This document shows, piece after piece, positions 5,515 through 23,829 of a DNA stretch of 32,000 nt. Origin of the DNA: Pyrolobus fumarii 1A (GTDB taxonomy: Archaea; Thermoproteota; Thermoprotei_A; Sulfolobales; Pyrodictiaceae); contig NC_015931.1 of NCBI RefSeq assembly GCF_000223395.1, positions 1,350,001 through 1,382,000 on the forward strand, read 5' to 3'. The position numbers and the translations under genes were made by a program. Position 1 is the first letter of the stretch. The number at the start of each line of letters is the position of its first letter. The notes under the pieces are model-generated. The model did not search any database. It was not told the DNA's origin and saw nothing but the letters and a program-made list of their open reading frames with translations.

Positions 5515-6594
5515 GTGGGTGTCGTGTTGTCGGTAAGGGAGTTTGCTAAAGACGGTTTTCTAGATGCAACGCCATACCCGCTACCAAAGAGGCATCCTGG
5601 AATAACCTACCTTGATCTTAACGAGTGCCCATTTGAGCCGCCAGCGTTTGTCCAGGAGGCGGTTTGTAAAGCAGCACGCCGGGGCAACCGGTATCCCACG
5701 CTAGATGATTATTACACGGTAGAGAGGCTGATTGCCGACTACGCTGGTCTAGAGCCAGACTATGTAGTGCTGACCGCGGGTGGCGACGAAGCCCTCAGAG
5801 CCATATTTGATGTGTTCGTCGGCCCCGGTGACAGAGTGGTACTTCTTGAGCCCGGCTTTGCAATGACGAGATTCTATACGATCGTGAGGGGTGGCGTGTA
5901 CCAAGCGGTGAAGCTTAGGGAGGAGGGACGACGATTCCTGCTCGACGAGAATGAACTACTCGAGGTGGCAAGCGGCGCACGCATGATCGTGATCGAGAAT
6001 CCCCATAATCCAACGGGTAGCCTACTAGCTAACGAGGAACTAGCTATTCGTCTCTTAGACGAGACTGATGCGATAGTAGTATTTGACGAGGCTTATTACG
6101 AGTTCGCTGGACTAAGCATAGCCAGGTTGACACAGCGCTACGACAGGCTGATAGTAGTACGCACCCTGAGCAAAGCCTTCTGTCTTGCTGGCTATCGCGT
6201 AGGATATATCCTCGCTCATCCAACGGCTTCGGAGCTTCTCCGCAAAGCATTAACACCATTCAACCTTAGCGTGGTTCAGCTTGCAGCTGCTCAAGCTGCC
6301 CTAGAGAATAGGGACTACGTTGAGAAGGTCATAGCTCACGTTAATAGCGAGAAGGATAGGATGACCAAGAGGCTTGAGGAGCTGGGCCTACGCGTGTATG
6401 AAAGCTACACGAACTTCCTCCTAGTGAAGACGGGCGTACCTGACATTCACGAACTTCTAGCCAAGCATGGCGTGGTTGTAAAGCAGATTAAGAGTCTAGG
6501 TAGCGACTACATTCGCGTAACAATAGGCACACGCGAGGAGAACGACAAGTTCATACACGCAATTGAGCAAGCAGTTGCCTCTGTTACACGCTAA
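5515..6594 (+). CDS. hisC: histidinol-phosphate aminotransferase
   Basis: Class-II aminotransferase motifs ENPHNPTG, FDEAYYEF and RTLSKAFCLAGYRVGY (PLP lysine). The tracked ORF starts at 5434 inside gltB, so I prefer the GTG at 5515 (or 5524), downstream of the gltB stop. Confidence 0.85.
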   Translation: MGVVLSVREFAKDGFLDATPYPLPKRHPGITYLDLNECPFEPPAFVQEAVCKAARRGNRYPTLDDYYTVERLIADYAGLEPDYVVLTAGGDEALRAIFDVFVGPGDRVVLLEPGFAMTRFYTIVRGGVYQAVKLREEGRRFLLDENELLEVASGARMIVIENPHNPTGSLLANEELAIRLLDETDAIVVFDEAYYEFAGLSIARLTQRYDRLIVVRTLSKAFCLAGYRVGYILAHPTASELLRKALTPFNLSVVQLAAAQAALENRDYVEKVIAHVNSEKDRMTKRLEELGLRVYESYTNFLLVKTGVPDIHELLAKHGVVVKQIKSLGSDYIRVTIGTREENDKFIHAIEQAVASVTR

Positions 6595-13161: not shown

Positions 13162-13785
13162 ATGTCTGCCTCTACACAGCAGAGTAGCACTAGGGTAGTG
13201 CGCCGCACCCCCGTTATAGAGCCGCCGGAGCCCTCCTACCGCATTGAGAACATCGTTGCAACCGTCACGCTTGACCAGAATCTCGACCTGTATGCCATCG
13301 AGACCAGCATACCGAATGTAGAGTATAACCCGGAGCAGTTCCCTGGCCTAGTGTTCCGCCTCGAGGAGCCCAAGGTAACGGCACTGATATTCAAGTCTGG
13401 CAAGATGGTTGTCACCGGCGCCAAGAGTACACAGCAGCTGATCGAAGCCGTTAAGAAGATAATAAGGGAGCTCAAGAGGCACGGTATCGTGATAGTGGGT
13501 AGGCCCAAGGTACAGATACAGAACATAGTGGCCTCGGCCAACCTCAACGTATGCGTCGATCTAGAGAAGGCTGCGTTGACCCTCGAGAACAGCATGTATG
13601 AGCCCGAGCAGTTCCCTGGCCTAATCTACCGCATGCAGAACCCGCGCGTCGTGCTACTCATATTCAGCTCCGGCAAGATGGTCATTACGGGCGCCAAGCG
13701 CGAGGAGGAGGTCAAGGAGGCTGTGTACAACATTCGCGACACGCTAGCCAAGATGAGAGCGCTGAGACCCTGCCCATCCGAGTAA
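13162..13785 (+). CDS. tbp: TATA-box binding protein
   Basis: Two TBP repeats are present: [20 protein letters not shown]...[11 protein letters not shown]...[16 protein letters not shown] and [21 protein letters not shown]...[11 protein letters not shown]...[17 protein letters not shown] prefer the ATG at 13162 because the tracked ORF start at 13006 lies inside hisG. Confidence 0.93.
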
Positions 13786-14553
13786 CCCGCCAGCCTCCTC
13801 CGGCGCTAGTATCTCCTCGAGCTCGCCCAGCTCGGGGAACTCTAACACACCTAGACCCTCAGCTATAACGAACGGCTTCATCTTATGCAGGTCCACCTCT
13901 TTTCTCAGTATGGGCGATAGGTACGTCTCCGGCATTGTAGAGACTGTTGTACCCGTCTGGTAGACGCCCGTCGCCGGCAGAACTATGAGTGTCGCGCCGG
14001 TCGGCTCGTGGCGCCCCACGAGGAAGCATGGGGCTTTTGCCACGTATCCTACCTTGTCCTTCAACGATATACTGGGGTGCTCGTGGCCCATGATTATGAT
14101 TCTCGGCTTTACTCCCTCCGGGAGCTGCTTGTGCCCGTGGATGAATACTATACCGTCTATCTCAAGATGCCCCTTTACAACTTCAACGTCATAGTCCTTC
14201 GCCACAACCACTAGGTAACTATCGTGGTTGCCCTTGACGATCTTTACCTCTACACCCTTCTGCTTTAGGTACTCGAATAACTTGGCTACTTCCTCCCTCT
14301 CGAGCCTAGTCAGCCTCTCGAACGTGTGTTTCACGTCGCCGACTATGATTACCCTATCCGGGTCATAGAGGCTGAAGGCCTCCTCTAGCATCTTCAATGC
14401 TCTCTTTAGCTGAACGCGTGGCAGGAAGTAGCCGTGCTTAGCAGCCTCCTCCTCAAACCCCAGGTGTAGATCTGCAAACACCAGCGCCCTCAAACTACGT
14501 ATGTATACTGCGGGGTGCTCCGCTACTGGCTCTATTCCAGGCACCAGCTCCAC
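13744..14553 (-). CDS. calcineurin-like metallophosphoesterase
   Basis: Motifs FADLHLG, VGDVKH, GNHD, HGH and GHEH. GTG start at 14553. The 3' end overlaps the tbp 3' end by 42 nt. Confidence 0.8.
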
Positions 14554-15526
14554 ACTCTACACCGGTATTATCGCGTGCAGACACCCCGTGATAAGGCAAG
14601 AGCGGTGTACCAGACACTCGACCGGTACACCCACCCCCATCGTTCACAACAACAATCACGCGACGACGATTATCGGGGACTTCTGTTCAGCCGACACTAG
14701 CATTAACACACACCACACGAGCACACTACAAGAGCGCAACTTCACACCCTACACGGTACACCACACTACAACACTACGATGATATCAGAGTATAACCAAG
14801 TAATCGTACTATACGCATTGCACACCAACAATCCATCTCGTTACCCGCGTTCATTATCGTAGAGTGGTTGACACGCTCGATCCTATGCTATCATGCACGT
14901 GCAGAGCCTAGTTGGAGACACTCAAACCAATACATGGAGTGTGATCAGTCGAGCTGCATGACGCCACGTATATCGCTAAACACCAAGATGCATTACTCCC
15001 AGTGTATACGCTCATTACCGGGAACCTACCATGCACGAAATGCGTACCAATGCCGCCAGAGACTCCTTCAGCACCTAGAGCTGTTTACACGATTCGCCTC
15101 TAACACCTCTAACGTCCAAACCCACATCTATCACCGCTAAACTCACACAGGTGCAACCAGTGTTAGCGTCCGCTGTACACAACCTGCAAAGCTGGGTGCA
15201 CCAGTCTACCACCCGATACAACTACCGGTACACCGTCTAGTATTAGGGACAGTTCACTATTCTACTAGGCAAGGCGCAAATACCAAATACTTACGCTCAA
15301 CGCGAAAAACAGTCACACTGCACGCATCGCGACACACGCTTTACTCGACTCGCAGAGATCAGCGCATATCCGAGAAGCATCTGCCCATCGGCGTGTCGGA
15401 CTTTACTGCTTATATCCTCCTTTGACCTCGCAAAGATTCTTGTATCAAGGCGCTGGCCACACGCTTAACTGTTGATACGAACATACGAGCTTCTCAAAAT
15501 TCCATGCCCACAAGACGTATGTGAAA

Positions 15527-15828
15527 GTAACACGGGGCCATGCACGCTCCAGCTGCGGGATCCGTAGTGAGCTAGGCCGCACAGCCTCCACACTATGCAC
15601 CTACACCAAACGCGTATTACTATCCGGCGCGTGTTACCACCAGACTCTCTGCCGCTATCCCCGCTGCGTAGAGAGCTAGGTCACGCAACCAGCAAACAAC
15701 CCATTCGACTCCACAACGTATTACTAGCAGTGTGTAATACGGGTCTTTGCTGCTCACCGCTTCTGGTTAGCGTTTGGGCATCCCCATCTGACCCCCCAGC
15801 GCTATACCCTGCCCCGCCAGCGTATTAC
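15527..15828. repeat. phased CGTRTTAC motif array
   Basis: CGTATTAC occurs at 15613, 15717 and 15821 on the + strand, exactly 104 bp apart. A partner copy lies 17 nt downstream of each of the first two: CGTGTTAC at 15630 (direct) and GTAATACG at 15734 (inverted). A further GTAACACG lies at 15527. Confidence 0.7.
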
Positions 15829-15962
15829 TTTGCCTTGCGCTACTCCCGATGCCTCACGGATATTCCGCCATATCCTGTTACCCCGCCGCCTTGGGCCGCG
15901 AACCATCACCCAAATCACACCATCGCTCTACATCGGTATGGTTGTGGCGGGATGTAGCCCCA

Positions 15963-15993
15963 CGGTGAAGTTAACTGGCGGTTAACTTCACCG
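15963..15993. repeat. perfect 13-bp inverted repeat with a 5-nt spacer
   Basis: CGGTGAAGTTAAC tggcg GTTAACTTCACCG. It sits where the strand composition switches from C-rich to G-rich. Confidence 0.8.
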
Positions 15994-16027
15994 CCGGTAG
16001 ATTTAACCACAGTTTCTTGTGGAGGCA

Positions 16028-16215
16028 TGGAGGGGTCTTGGAGGAGCTAGCGTTGCAAATGGTTATGGCGGGTTGCTGTGGCCAGTTGCCGTACCCGCCG
16101 AACTGTTGCCTTCTCACCATTGCCCCTGGCTCCCAAACAGGTCGAGGGTTCCTGTGATGCTGTTCGCAGGGTTTGACCTTAAGTGCACTAGTGTATTAAC
16201 CGGTGCACCGTCCAA
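16028..16215 (+). ncRNA. candidate small structured RNA (class unknown)
   Basis: A TATA-like ATTTAACC at 16001-16008 lies about 25 nt upstream. The segment is G-rich and has several complementary blocks: GGCGGGT 16068/ACCCGCC 16093, AGGTC/GACCT, a CTG-TTCG-CAG hairpin, and paired GTGCAC sites. No known RNA family motif was recognised. Confidence 0.2.
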
Positions 16216-16227
16216 TCCACTCGTGCA

Positions 16228-16240
16228 GAAAATAAATATT
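16228..16240 (-). terminator. oligo-T tract downstream of eL38
   Basis: The minus strand reads AATATTTATTTTC immediately after the eL38 stop. This fits the archaeal oligo-T terminator type. Confidence 0.35.
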
Positions 16241-16246
16241 GGAGTG

Positions 16247-16537
16247 TTATGATAGTTGTTGTTCTACGTCCTTGTCTAGTACGACTAGGTTGCCTCCGCA
16301 CACTTCGCCCTTTGCAACCATGTCTTTCAACTGCTTCGCGAACTCGAGTCCTTTCTCGTAGTCCTCGAACTTCAACGTGTATAGGTAGCGACGTGTTCTA
16401 GCCTTGACCTTTAGGATGGGCCTTTTCTCAACACCATTCTCCGTTTTGACATACACATAGCTCTTCTTTACGCGGCACTCACTCGCCCTCTTAGCCGCCT
16501 CGAGGAACTCTTCTACAGTTTTTACCTCCTTGGGCAT
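16247..16537 (-). CDS. rpl38e: ribosomal protein eL38
   Basis: MPKEVKTVEEFLEAAKR...KVKARTRRYLYTLKFEDYEKGLEFAKQL parallels eukaryotic L38 (MPRKIEEIKDFL...[28 protein letters not shown]). It is longer than eukaryotic L38, with an internal insertion and a C-terminal extension. Confidence 0.8.
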   Translation of the reverse strand: MPKEVKTVEEFLEAAKRASECRVKKSYVYVKTENGVEKRPILKVKARTRRYLYTLKFEDYEKGLEFAKQLKDMVAKGEVCGGNLVVLDKDVEQQLS

Positions 16538-18277: not shown

Positions 18278-18646
18278 GTGACGGGTGTACCCGTCTTGCC
18301 AGCGAGAGGCGAGGCTACAGTTCTCTCGTCGGCACTGCTTCTTGGCATCACTTTGGTTCTTGGCACTGTGCTAGCCATTTACGCTGCAACTGTAGCTACG
18401 GGAACCAGCACCGATACCAAGCCGTGCACGATAAGTACGTTGAAAGTTGCTGATGGCGTGCTCGTGTACAACTCGTGCCCCTATGCGGTCAATATCACGT
18501 TTCTGCCGCCAGGCGCCTATACAGTGTTGACAACGTCTGGCAGTGTAAACGTGTCAATGGTTACCCTCGAACCTGGAGAGGCTATTCTGGTAAAAGGCGG
18601 TGTAAAGGCTGTTGAGTCTGAGGGTATCATCATCGAGGTGAGCTAA
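18278..18646 (+). CDS. small secreted/membrane protein with an archaeal class-III (type IV pilin-like) signal peptide
   Basis: The N-terminus ...PARG/EATVLSSALLLGITLVLGTVLAIYAA has a short basic head, an RG motif and then a ~22-aa hydrophobic helix. The rest is Thr/Val-rich and beta-like. Start is GTG 18278 or TTG 18296. Confidence 0.55.
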   Translation: MTGVPVLPARGEATVLSSALLLGITLVLGTVLAIYAATVATGTSTDTKPCTISTLKVADGVLVYNSCPYAVNITFLPPGAYTVLTTSGSVNVSMVTLEPGEAILVKGGVKAVESEGIIIEVS

Positions 18647-18666
18647 CACCATGCTAACACTCAATG

Positions 18667-18681
18667 ATTTAAAGTTTAAGG
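18667..18681 (+). promoter_or_regulatory. TATA-like elements upstream of the 533-aa membrane protein gene
   Basis: ATTTAAAGTTTAAGG lies immediately before the ATG at 18686. This position would favour the ATG at 18713 (MKYRRTLAS...) as a leaderless start. Confidence 0.35.
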
Positions 18682-18685
18682 GGTT

Positions 18686-20287
18686 ATGTATACCCACGGC
18701 ACGGTGCACGATATGAAATATCGAAGAACACTTGCCAGCATCTATGCTTTTGTATCCCTGACGTTGTACCTCTACGTGTATCCATTGGTTAGCGATGAGC
18801 TAACATCGCTTGCTATAGCAGCCGCTGTGGGCTGGGCCGCAGCCTATACAGCTTATACGGTGCCACGATATAGTGGTATCATTTTCAGTCTAGCCGCCAT
18901 AGCAGCGATGCTTTCGCTGGCATCGGCTTCCCCCGCCCATTGGCTTTACATCGCACTTTCAGATTTCATTGTACTATTGTCTTATGTGATGTTAACGCTA
19001 GCGTTGCTTGCCGCAGGCGTAAGCATAAGGAGATATATTGGCATTATAGCCGCGAGTACCGGGCTACTAGCTGGTGCTACACTACACGCTCCCTACGGTC
19101 ATTTGGCTGCCATTGGTTTACTGGCCATGTATGCCGCGCTGAGCGGCAGCGTATCAAGGACGCTCATAGCGCTCCTGTTTGAGGAATATACTAGGTTCTC
19201 ATTATCAATGTGCATTGCGAGCATGGGCATTGTTAAGTGTTTTGACGGGTTCACAGAGGTGCCTACAAGACCGATAAAGCCGCTGGTAGATGCGCTACTA
19301 GAGCCCATAGGCAAGATGAGTCCAGAAGTAATTCAGGTGTTGTATAAGCCTTTGTCGTTCTTTGTCCTCACGTTCGCAGGGGCTATGCTAGTCTATGGTG
19401 TCACAGCCGCCGTAGCATCTAGTGTTGAGAGGCGTCTGGCTAGGTGGACCCCCGAGGCCGCTGCTATAACAAAGCATAGCATCATTCTGTCATCAGCACT
19501 CTCATTACTGTCTTACTTCACGGCACTAAACTTATTCGTAACATCATCCTGGCTACTCTCTTGCAACTTTAGAACACCATTTATACCAACATTCATAATA
19601 GCTGCATCAATAGCAACTACATCTATACTTGTGAAGCTACTTCACTATATATCGTCTATACGCTCTCTAAGTGAGGAAAAGAACAGCCTCATAGAGTCTA
19701 TAGATGCACTACGCCAGGATGTTATTAGGCTCTTGAACGAGTCACGCACCTCGAGGGTCACTCCGAGAAATACGAGTGAGAAACTTAAGGCTCTACTTGA
19801 GAAGCTAGATAACCTCAAGGCTAGGGTTGTAAAAGCAGGTCTACTGGAGCTGCCCAACTTAGAGAGGCTGCTCACCGAGTTTGAAGCCGAGTATCGCGAT
19901 ATCGGCAACAGCATTGTAGCTAGTCTTGAGCACACACTATCTGCTATACATGATTCTTGCAGGATGTTATCACGGTGGGCGAGTGAACACAGCCTACCTA
20001 AGGATTGCCACGAGGCACCACTTGATATACGAGGCCGAGATGCACACAGAGCAATTATCGAGGTTGAACGTGCAGCCCAGAAGCTCCTAGAATACATCGA
20101 GTTACTCCTGGACGAGATAGAGGTTGAAGCCGAAGAGGCAAAGATAGAGGCGAAGGAGCTGCTAGAGCTTAGAAAGCTAGTAGAGAGTATAGACTTTAGC
20201 GACCCCGAGACCTTGAGAAACCAAACAAGAGAGTTCATATTGAAGGCGTCTAGCATACTCGGAAGGGTGTACACGAGACAAGCCTAA
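18686..20287 (+). CDS. polytopic membrane protein with a ~200-aa C-terminal coiled-coil domain (unknown function)
   Basis: The N-terminal ~320 aa consists of successive hydrophobic segments, roughly 9-10 predicted TM helices by eye. The C-terminal part is heptad-like and E/K/L/R-rich (EKNSLIESIDALRQDVIRLL..., EVEAEEAKIEAKELLELRKLVE). No family recognised. Confidence 0.65.
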   Translation: MYTHGTVHDMKYRRTLASIYAFVSLTLYLYVYPLVSDELTSLAIAAAVGWAAAYTAYTVPRYSGIIFSLAAIAAMLSLASASPAHWLYIALSDFIVLLSYVMLTLALLAAGVSIRRYIGIIAASTGLLAGATLHAPYGHLAAIGLLAMYAALSGSVSRTLIALLFEEYTRFSLSMCIASMGIVKCFDGFTEVPTRPIKPLVDALLEPIGKMSPEVIQVLYKPLSFFVLTFAGAMLVYGVTAAVASSVERRLARWTPEAAAITKHSIILSSALSLLSYFTALNLFVTSSWLLSCNFRTPFIPTFIIAASIATTSILVKLLHYISSIRSLSEEKNSLIESIDALRQDVIRLLNESRTSRVTPRNTSEKLKALLEKLDNLKARVVKAGLLELPNLERLLTEFEAEYRDIGNSIVASLEHTLSAIHDSCRMLSRWASEHSLPKDCHEAPLDIRGRDAHRAIIEVERAAQKLLEYIELLLDEIEVEAEEAKIEAKELLELRKLVESIDFSDPETLRNQTREFILKASSILGRVYTRQA

Positions 20288-22455: not shown

Positions 22456-23829
22456 TTGACAGTACCAACACTTACTAGCTCATGCCACATCCCAGTTAGA
22501 CTGGTATCAACTTCTTCGATCCTATTAGCGACGCTAACATTAACCATTATCATCACAACTTCGCTATCCACAGTTGTGGGTCACGCCGCTACTCACAGTA
22601 TTGTCCTTGAAGTCACGCCGCGCATCGTGTCAACAGACGGCACTCTGCGTATTAAGCTGGTTCAGACGTCACCCGAGTATGAGACTGTCGCAGTTAGATT
22701 AGAGGGGCCGAGCAGCACAGGCTATATGACGTTGAGTGCCGGCTCTATAGTGGCCATAGATTTGAGCACGTACAGGTTACCTCCAGGACTCTATTATGTC
22801 ACCGCATATGATACTCCTGGCGGCAAACGCCTCACATCTGTACCCGTGCTACTCGTCAACGTCAAACTAACATTTACACCGCCAAGACCAAGCATAGGCC
22901 AAGAGTTCCTTGCAACACCATTGATAGAGCCGCCCGGCTACGACTATCGCATCACTATAAAGGTTGACAACAAGATTATTGGAGAGACAGAGCCAGGCAC
23001 TGGCGTGAAACTCAGGTTAGACACTAGAGGACCACATACAATATGCATCGACATCTCAGCAAACATACAAGGCCAGATCTACAACGAGGCTAACGTGACA
23101 TGTACTCAATTAGTTTTGAACGTCCCTCCGACAATAGGCGCCCAGACAATGCTAGAAGGCAATTACATAACCTTATTGCTGGACGTGCGCGACCCAGATG
23201 GCGTACTCATCTCGGCATCCTACAATTGTACAATTGATGGACTTACTTGGAGCGGATACCTACCAGGCGGCATTTCACGCGTAAAACTACTGACCATAGA
23301 TGACGCATATACCATTCTAAACGAGACGAGCGGCCTCGCACTACTCAAGTGCACTATATCCGCAGTTGACGACTCAGGAGCCAGGGCTACAAAGCTCTTG
23401 GTGGAGCGTCTCGCAGACATACTTGCAGCAACCACTATAGAGGAATCGAATAGACAAACAGGGACACCTAAGAGAACGGCACAAAAAGAGACTGCAACCA
23501 CAACACAAGCGTCACATGGAGGGTCACCACCCTTACCCTCCGAGATTCTCATACCACTAGCTGCCATCATACCCCTAGTAGGCGGCTTAGCCGCTCTGTT
23601 CATACTGCGCAAGAAGAAGATGGGTATGAAGCAAAAGACTGCACCACCAAAACCTGCGAGAGAGCGTACCGCGGTGGAGCAAAGCAGAGAGGAGCTAGCA
23701 AACGTGATAGCTAGACTTGATAAGCTCGAGAGACAAATGGAAGAGCTTATAGGGATAGTTGGCGAGCTTCGTGGCGAAGTAGACGAGCTAAGATCTCATG
23801 TGAAAAAGCTCGAAGAGCGTAGGAGATAA
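22456..23829 (+). CDS. type-I membrane-anchored surface protein with a cytoplasmic coiled-coil tail (unknown function)
   Basis: It has an N-terminal hydrophobic signal-like segment (SSILLATLTLTIIITTSLS). About 300 aa of beta-rich ectodomain follows, then a Thr-rich linker (TGTPKRTAQKETATTTQASHGG). The TM anchor is ILIPLAAIIPLVGGLAALFIL followed by RKKK. The tail is 70 aa with heptad character (LANVIARLDKLERQMEELIGIVGELRGEVDELRSHVKKLEERRR). TTG start. Confidence 0.65.
   Translation: MTVPTLTSSCHIPVRLVSTSSILLATLTLTIIITTSLSTVVGHAATHSIVLEVTPRIVSTDGTLRIKLVQTSPEYETVAVRLEGPSSTGYMTLSAGSIVAIDLSTYRLPPGLYYVTAYDTPGGKRLTSVPVLLVNVKLTFTPPRPSIGQEFLATPLIEPPGYDYRITIKVDNKIIGETEPGTGVKLRLDTRGPHTICIDISANIQGQIYNEANVTCTQLVLNVPPTIGAQTMLEGNYITLLLDVRDPDGVLISASYNCTIDGLTWSGYLPGGISRVKLLTIDDAYTILNETSGLALLKCTISAVDDSGARATKLLVERLADILAATTIEESNRQTGTPKRTAQKETATTTQASHGGSPPLPSEILIPLAAIIPLVGGLAALFILRKKKMGMKQKTAPPKPARERTAVEQSREELANVIARLDKLERQMEELIGIVGELRGEVDELRSHVKKLEERRR

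Follow-up and report, generated by a model that had tools for sequence, protein, structure and literature searches.

Characterised archaeal replication origins contain several inverted origin recognition boxes (ORBs) around an A+T-rich DNA unwinding element (DUE). Arrays of the Lrp/FL11 and Ss-LrpB type, which are those of helically phased wrapping regulators, consist of sites of 13 to 15 bp with A/T-rich centres that are located ~30 to 40 bp apart in promoters. In the ORB3-DUE(ucm)-ORB2 segment of Sulfolobus oriC1, two outer initiator sites and a central ucm occupy a 130-bp segment that binds Orc1-1 and UBP, with all three elements needed and the DNA between them tolerating substitution (PMC12141716). 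The ubp gene has been reported in both Desulfurococcales and Sulfolobales (PMC12141716). Here, we describe an array of short palindromic boxes in Pyrolobus fumarii 1A that recalls the Sulfolobus segment in its layout. It is located in a gene-free gap of 1,693 bp (positions 14554–16246) within a 32,000-nt stretch of DNA (the window, to which all coordinates refer). Judging from the sequence of this locus and its relatives, it is very probably a selected array of protein sites that acts at the DNA level under strict spacing.

The boxes were noticed in a sequence-only reading of the window, which reported copies of one box at an exact spacing of 104 bp, two of them with a partner box 17 nt away. 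All of the box coordinates proved correct, and the 104-bp same-strand spacing is exact in P. fumarii. Specifically, the (+) strand has copies of CGTATTAC beginning at 15613, 15717 and 15821 (104/104 bp; repeat family D7) and the (−) strand has one at 15734, while CGTGTTAC is found at 15630, with its reverse complement at 15527. The four copies of CGTATTAC in the 32-kb window (expected, ~1.0) all fall within 15613–15828, and 2 of 100 shuffles reach this number. However, the motif is not the directional CGTATTACTW that had been proposed, as all boxes fit the 7-bp pattern GTRWYAC (the A box), which is its own reverse complement. The A box is thus free of orientation, and the distinction between direct and inverted partner boxes is therefore meaningless. 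The total number of GTRWYAC sites in the window is ordinary (17 versus 15 expected), and 6 of the 17 lie inside 302 bp (random placement, P ~2.5e-6).

Next to P. fumarii, the comparison set comprised four genomes (L001, L032, L033/L034 and L042), with which the gene order HisG, TBP, phosphoesterase, gap, L38e, beta-CASP is shared. These are not near-identical strains. L001, a Pyrolobus sp. metagenome-assembled genome (MAG) and the single relative compared directly at the DNA level, has a beta-CASP protein 87% identical to that of P. fumarii and flanking coding DNA that is ~75% identical, while the phosphoesterases of L032, L033/L034 and L042 are 81%, 74% and 76% identical, respectively. The gap measures 815 to 862 bp in the four relatives, and each orthologous gap contains 6 to 7 copies of GTRWYAC, i.e., 3.5 to 8.5 per kb versus 0.15 to 0.36 per kb in the flanking DNA. 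The array is present in four other genomes, and, together with the divergence of the DNA between its boxes (see below), this is the opposite of both grounds that the sequence-only reading had named for giving it up.

Comparison of the A-box start spacings in the five genomes (Table 1) revealed that the conserved quantity is a pair of boxes 86 to 88 bp apart, which occurs three times, rather than the 104 bp initially taken as the distance of the array. The latter period is the sum of 87 and 17 bp and is, therefore, specific to P. fumarii; the first pair of units is 93 to 94 bp apart in L001, L032 and L042. Start to start, the linkers between units measure either 7 bp or 16 to 17 bp. The two linker classes differ by 9 to 10 bp, i.e., approximately one helical turn, so that the rotational relation between units is preserved. 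L033 also carries a seventh box, GTGTTAC (reverse-complement position 2801), which lies 72 bp past the last regular box and has no counterpart in the other genomes.

Stacking of the spacers revealed a central B motif at the exact midpoint of each box pair, a 10-bp palindrome with the consensus GGGCTAGCCC. In the 12 units measured, B lies 42.5 to 44.5 bp from the centre of each box, and it stands out just as well in the three L042 units. The unit can thus be written as A-N35-GGGCTAGCCC-N35-A, a dyad-symmetric element of 94 bp, with six A and three B sites making up three units. Over 30 half-units, information is found at A positions 1–7 and B positions 43–52, with ≤0.34 bits elsewhere. The B motif also accounts for what repetition exists between the boxes. 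The interval had been described as not obviously repeated, which needs correcting: a 31-nt block at 15563 recurs at 15667 with 74% identity (repeat family D2). Exactly midway between the boxes, this block contains the second conserved motif, GAGCTAGG, and the similarity stems from this motif and its flanks. We scored units by a composite of two boxes at 86 to 88 bp and the centre motif (maximum, 24), which revealed exactly three units of 22 to 24 in each orthologous gap. At a score of at least 22, nothing more was found in the window or its flanks, nor in any shuffled window, and at a score of at least 21, there was none besides the array units in 457 kb of fetched DNA. When the unit model was fixed on four genomes and then applied to L042, which had been held out, it recovered three units, joined by linkers of 7 and 16 bp.

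The distances are kept while the DNA between the sites is not. The 15 long spacers between A boxes in the five genomes range from 79 to 81 bp (mean, 79.7; standard deviation, 0.6), in contrast to the distance from the array to the neighbouring conserved core (see below), which varies from 132 to 199 bp. Identity within the spacer interiors is 33% for orthologous units and 34% for non-orthologous units, which is random for this composition, and BLAST of the P. fumarii gap against the L001 gap aligned a 66-bp block at 15959–16024 alone. That boxes and spacing are kept while the DNA between them is at random-level identity suggests that spacing is constrained in the DNA itself, as would be expected of a protein complex that binds cooperatively or wraps the DNA. 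The pattern of a phased protein-site array, in which site and distance are kept and the intervening DNA is unconstrained, is thus seen in all five genomes, and the suggestion of a spaced array of binding sites rather than a tandem duplication was right in kind, though not in its details; the observation behind it is stronger than first described. A 10-bp compositional periodicity within the spacers was unconvincing, with the apparent peaks stemming from the central motif. The elements are 7 and 10 bp in length and degenerate, as opposed to CRISPR repeats of at least 24 bp with spacers of 26 to 72 bp, and there are no cas genes in the window, in agreement with the initial view that this is not a CRISPR array.

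Table 1. Coordinates of the array units, core elements and bordering genes in the P. fumarii window, with A-box start spacings in five genomes
Feature	Position	Strand	Sequence or spacing	Remarks
Unit 1	15527–15620		A GTAACAC 15527–15533; B GAGCTAGGCC 15569–15578; A GTATTAC 15614–15620	Score 24/24; A starts 87 bp apart, B 43.5 bp from either A centre
Unit 2	15631–15724		A GTGTTAC 15631–15637; B GAGCTAGGTC 15673–15682; A GTATTAC 15718–15724	Score 24/24; 17 bp from the final A box of unit 1, start to start
Unit 3	15734–15828		A GTAATAC 15734–15740; B GGGCATCCCC 15776–15785; A GTATTAC 15822–15828	Score 22/24; 16 bp from the final A box of unit 2, start to start
A-box start spacings, P. fumarii			87, 17, 87, 16, 88	
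A-box start spacings, L001			86, 7, 86, 16, 86	
A-box start spacings, L032			87, 16, 87, 7, 87	In its own orientation
A-box start spacings, L033			86, 16, 87, 16, 86	Admits a one-mismatch first box, GTATTCC
A-box start spacings, L042			87, 7, 87, 16, 87	
Direct repeat, left copy	15938–15954	+	ATGGTTGTGGCGGGATG	Family D1; counterpart in relatives, (GT)AAATGGGYATGG
Perfect 13-5-13 palindrome	15963–15993		CGGTGAAGTTAAC-TGGCG-GTTAACTTCACCG	
ORB-like box	15996–16026	−	CCTCCACAAGAAACTGTGGTTAAATC	Sequence as read on the minus strand
Direct repeat, right copy	16059–16075	+	ATGGTTATGGCGGGTTG	Family D1
Phosphoesterase gene	13744–14544	−		Left border of the gap; start of the gene faces the gap
L38e gene	16247–16537	−		Right border of the gap; end of the gene faces the gap
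GGTRYACC copies in the gap	14604, 14624, 14755, 15195, 15227, 16202			

The array adjoins a conserved core, which we compared across seven related sequences, two of them metagenome contigs. The inner 24 bases of the core palindrome fit GGTGAARTTAACTGGCGGTTAACT in all seven (23 invariant, one either A or G), and the palindrome is directly followed by GGTGGATTTAACCAC...GTTTCC.GTGGAG. The ORB-like box, which follows the rightmost A box at a distance of 190 bp, is the sole match with ≤2 mismatches in the 32 kb and is kept in 7 of 7 sequences. Its minus strand at 16012–16024 reads CTCCACAAGAAAC and agrees at 12 of 13 positions with CTCCACAGGAAAC, the core of an Aeropyrum pernix ORB 22-mer; in L001, the corresponding TCTCCACAGGAAA agrees at 13 of 13 positions with this 22-mer, TCTCCACAGGAAACGGAGGGGT, which we take to be ORB4 of oriC1. 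The sequence of the 22-mer is confirmed in PMC5376975, and the ORB-like box also resembles the euryarchaeal ORB consensus GTTCCAGTGGAAAC (PMC1868953). A direct repeat of the AAATGGGYATGG type flanks the core on both sides, at fixed distances across variable sequence; its right copy is found 32 to 34 bp from the ORB-like box in all genomes, with the sequence between them varying. In the L001 and L032 gaps, no 50-bp window has a lower GC content than the core (42 to 50% G+C), and the GC skew turns from negative to positive toward the core-proximal half in 4 of the 4 gaps compared. A metagenome scan for the core palindrome yielded two independent contigs with L38e and beta-CASP, L039 (1,145 bp) and L040 (1,679 bp), which supply only the right half of the locus; both end 12 to 46 bp from the palindrome, and assemblies may break there or at the variable DNA beyond.

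The window neighbours of the gap are archaeal (TBP, ribosomal protein L38e, beta-CASP nuclease and eIF2-gamma), and the gap itself shows no coding or RNA signal. It contains no long open reading frame (ORF), and the gene caller used for public assemblies predicts nothing in it; the sole ORF of 120 codons (15595–15957) is without a Pfam or NCBIfam match. Six-frame tblastn between gaps matched the core block alone, and in all frames, i.e., without coding conservation. Rfam gave zero matches in the gap at gathering and permissive thresholds alike, and no match at gathering thresholds in any source searched.

Several side observations concern the gap and its surroundings. In P. fumarii only, ~900 bp of extra noncoding DNA (14560–15520) separates the phosphoesterase start from the array, with no similarity to the rest of the window or to any fetched locus; the distance from the array to the phosphoesterase start is accordingly 973 bp, versus 74 to 139 bp in the four relatives. 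GGTRYACC motifs, often lengthened to CCGGTRYACCGG, are located at both gap ends in every genome; in L001 and L032, most motifs of the left cluster point the opposite way from those of the right cluster, and the GTRYAC core of the motif is an A box minus its central base. The convergent TBP (+) and phosphoesterase (−) frames overlap by ~40 bp at their 3′ ends (13744–13785), an overlap that recurs in the gene calls of all related loci. Three conserved ORFs at 18278–20287 and 22456–23829 have no family assignment: one of 122 aa with a pilin-like hydrophobic N-terminus, one of 507 aa that spans the membrane several times and has a long coiled coil at its C-terminus, and one of 457 aa, probably a surface protein, that carries a C-terminal anchor and coiled coil. 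In L037 (Hyperthermus butylicus, CP000493), an 892-bp gene-free gap directly upstream of the phosphoesterase gene contains no A/B units; its first ~130 nt (5870–6000) are very G+C-rich with nested complementary runs (GTTGTGGGCCGCGGGGGAATCCGCCCGCGCATCCACAAGGGGGCC...) and resemble a small structured RNA, with no Rfam match at gathering thresholds.

With the palindrome and the ORB-like box as its core, the locus is most likely an origin or a related chromosome-maintenance site, and we regard the array as a double-stranded-DNA platform of protein sites within such a locus with about even confidence. That the locus is specifically a replication origin is a tentative assignment, somewhat less probable than not, which draws on the match to the ORB/mini-ORB consensus (12/13 in P. 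fumarii and 13/13 in L001), on the low GC content of the core in L001 and L032 and on the turn in GC skew. A number of observations weigh against these assignments or limit the array behind them. Each gap contains one ORB-like box (≤2 mismatches) rather than an inverted set; the core is just relatively A+T-rich, so that its unwinding element is weak at best; and the 32-kb window contains no orc1/cdc6 or WhiP-like gene. The Sulfolobus ucm, ATTATACAAAC, does not occur in the gap at ≤2 mismatches, and its window-wide matches are at chance level. A 7-bp site is also short for a typical archaeal regulator. The array is confined to one narrow clade, being absent at the corresponding position in Hyperthermus, Pyrofollis, a Pyrodictium MAG and other Desulfurococcales loci as well as in a relative with a 69 to 71% identical phosphoesterase and different neighbour genes. 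Finally, the A and B consensus was derived from the sequences used for most statistics, with L042 alone being independent.

The missing initiator gene is not decisive, however, since in A. pernix there is also no ORB within 10 kb of orc1, so that an origin apart from orc1 has a precedent in this order. As regards other traces of an initiator, nothing in PDB, Pfam or NCBIfam connects the unannotated ORFs of the window with Orc1, Cdt1 or WhiP. The Orc1 of P. fumarii is not among the 120 matches listed, and a cluster look-up identified no Aeropyrum phosphoesterase. Membership of the locus in a known origin family is not established.

Likeness to the described systems is partial in each case. As in Sulfolobus oriC1, outer sites flank a central site for a putative second factor within ~100 to 130 bp. 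In P. fumarii, however, the outer sites are 7-bp palindromes instead of 20- to 30-bp ORBs, the centre is GGGCTAGCCC instead of ATTATACAAAC, the interior is not A+T-rich, and the unit is present in three tandem copies. With A. pernix oriC1, the locus shares a position away from orc1 and a core box that matches CTCCACAGGAAAC at 12 to 13 of 13 positions and keeps the CCAC...GTGG dyad; it differs in having one box where A. pernix has four, in a G-string that is off its canonical position and in the lack of a ucm. Several palindromic sites with constrained spacing and unconstrained sequence between them are also a feature of the Lrp/FL11 and Ss-LrpB arrays, whereas the sites here are 7 and 10 bp in length, 43.5 bp apart and of two alternating kinds. 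The sequence-only reading had proposed a DNA-wrapping regulator or initiator protein, of the Lrp or Orc1 type. The spacing constraint would fit a cooperative or wrapping complex, and the ORB-like box makes an Orc1-type protein plausible, but none of the tests made points to an Lrp-type one.

Bacterial maintenance loci offer further parallels. The 43-bp sopC repeats of F, R1 parC and the Xer sites cer/psi are likewise regular short inverted-repeat sites that seat one large nucleoprotein complex and adjoin or form a single-copy cis site; in contrast, their repeats are homologous over the whole unit, and there are no partition or recombinase genes near the P. fumarii array. The GATC clusters of E. 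coli oriC (SeqA/Dam) are similar in that a short palindrome, no more frequent than usual in the genome as a whole, is gathered in phase at a single maintenance locus. In P. fumarii, however, there is no sign of a methylation system, the sites are much more strictly spaced and a second motif alternates with the first. The site of TrmBL1, the Thermococcales glycolytic motif (TATCAC-N5-GTGATA), was also considered and rejected, as none of the gaps matches it at ≤2 mismatches; all that was seen is TATCAC or GTGATA within some of the A boxes.

Among the alternatives to an origin or maintenance platform, operator- or enhancer-like control of transcription, in which a repressor or activator oligomerises over A and B, is the most probable, though still unlikely. 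It would act on the phosphoesterase gene or on divergent noncoding transcripts from the palindromic core, with AAGTTAAC and ATTTAAC of the core as TATA-like boxes. The gap does lie upstream of the phosphoesterase start, beside which GGTRYACC palindromes cluster in all genomes, and dimeric transcription factors typically use palindromic sites. Moreover, the G-rich strand switches at the core, and divergent G-rich transcripts would fit this switch as well as an origin would. However, nine sites over 300 bp, at 74 to 973 bp from the gene, far exceed known archaeal operators, and neither the gene caller nor Rfam places a gene in the gap. In addition, relatives with a 61 to 71% identical phosphoesterase have a short upstream region without the array, which is, therefore, not tied to that gene. 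A bacterial-type promoter scan is uninformative for archaea.

We consider it distinctly improbable that the locus is a chromosome-segregation or dimer-resolution site, with the core as the target of a recombinase (Xer/dif-like, 11-7-11) or centromere protein and the A-B-A array as accessory DNA that is wrapped to form a synapse or a partition complex, much like cer/psi accessory sequences or the 43-bp sopC repeats. A perfect palindrome with an invariant spacer that occurs once per locus, next to a ~300-bp block of strict geometry, is what such a site might look like, and the distance of 43.5 bp between sites is reminiscent of sopC on the F plasmid, with its 43-bp repeat. Nevertheless, the window contains no recombinase or partition gene, and the ORB-like box would be left without a role. 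Bacterial and archaeal dif sites have ATAA/TTAT arms, unlike the inner arms of the palindrome (GTTAA/TTAAC).

Boxes that pair together in a structured noncoding RNA or single-strand DNA structure are a very improbable explanation. Candidate pairs are CGTATTAC at 15717 with GTAATACG at 15734 and GTAACACG at 15527 with CGTGTTAC at 15630; several such box pairs form inverted repeats of 8 bp without a mismatch, both in P. fumarii and in its relatives, and three of the four gaps compared have a G+C content no lower than their flanking genes. However, copies of any palindromic pattern are largely complementary by construction, and the central W of the A box, the position at which they need not be, shows no strand preference (16 T, 14 A) and is complementary between paired boxes in 9 of 15 units, i.e., at chance. 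The A site is, therefore, read as a duplex palindrome rather than as RNA or a cruciform. Furthermore, the minimum free energy z-scores of the units average approximately −0.7 on both strands (4 of 24 below −2), alifold of orthologous units versus shuffled interiors gave z values of −1.2 to +0.4, there are no Rfam families, and changes in the arms of the core hairpin break pairing and are uncompensated. The tests run contradict this explanation as well as neutral decay of a duplication.

A decayed 104-bp tandem duplication or mobile-element remnant without present function is scarcely credible: units 1 and 2 of P. fumarii do share the 31-nt block in register, offset 104 does top the regional autocorrelation (34%), and the P. 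fumarii gap does contain ~900 bp of extra unique DNA, but Tandem Repeats Finder reports nothing here, a four-unit alignment of the kind proposed at the outset shows box columns and scattered matches alone (with the autocorrelation, these leave the 31-nt block of B and its flanks as the sole repeat), the units occur at this syntenic position only and neither they nor the core palindrome were found in viral contigs, and, in genomes this far from near-identical, neutral decay cannot hold 15 spacers at 79 to 81 bp while their sequence randomises and neighbouring distances drift by tens of base pairs.

Returning to the platform within an origin or maintenance locus, we propose that the array acts as double-stranded DNA, with sequence-specific proteins occupying the A and B sites. 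These proteins would probably be dimers, because the sites are palindromic. Once bound, they may assemble into a higher-order complex whose geometry sets the A-B distance at 43.5 bp and leaves the DNA between the sites free to vary. DNA twist falls with temperature, and a helical repeat of ~10.8 bp is expected near 100°C; on this estimate, 43.5 bp corresponds to approximately four turns, which would place the A, B and A sites of a unit on one face of the helix. The array would then be one module of a conserved noncoding locus, serving an origin or maintenance site with an Orc1-type ORB-like box and palindrome as its core, as an architectural or loading platform. It is from sequence comparison that we infer protein binding, wrapping or phasing, and origin function. 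A more specific version is speculative and, by our estimate, rather unlikely: by analogy with Sulfolobus, the locus could represent an undescribed origin-associated module of three tandem A-B-A platforms with the geometry of ORB3-ucm-ORB2 but unrelated motifs, which a putative pair of DNA-binding proteins would read, and with one Orc1 box and a palindrome beside them.

The array appears to be a clear case of selection on distance without selection on sequence, which is of a kind that escapes alignment-based conservation scans. It also offers a compact target, with nine sites, two motifs and a fixed spacing of 43.5 bp, and the strict spacing predicts that 5-bp insertions would abolish function, whereas insertions of ~11 bp may not. 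The Pyrodictiaceae include the most heat-tolerant cultured archaea, and, to our knowledge, nothing experimental is known about their replication origins or chromosome-maintenance sites. If the proposed origin-associated module is real, an organism with growth above 100°C would be seen to arrange initiation, or to mark an origin, in a manner that is new.

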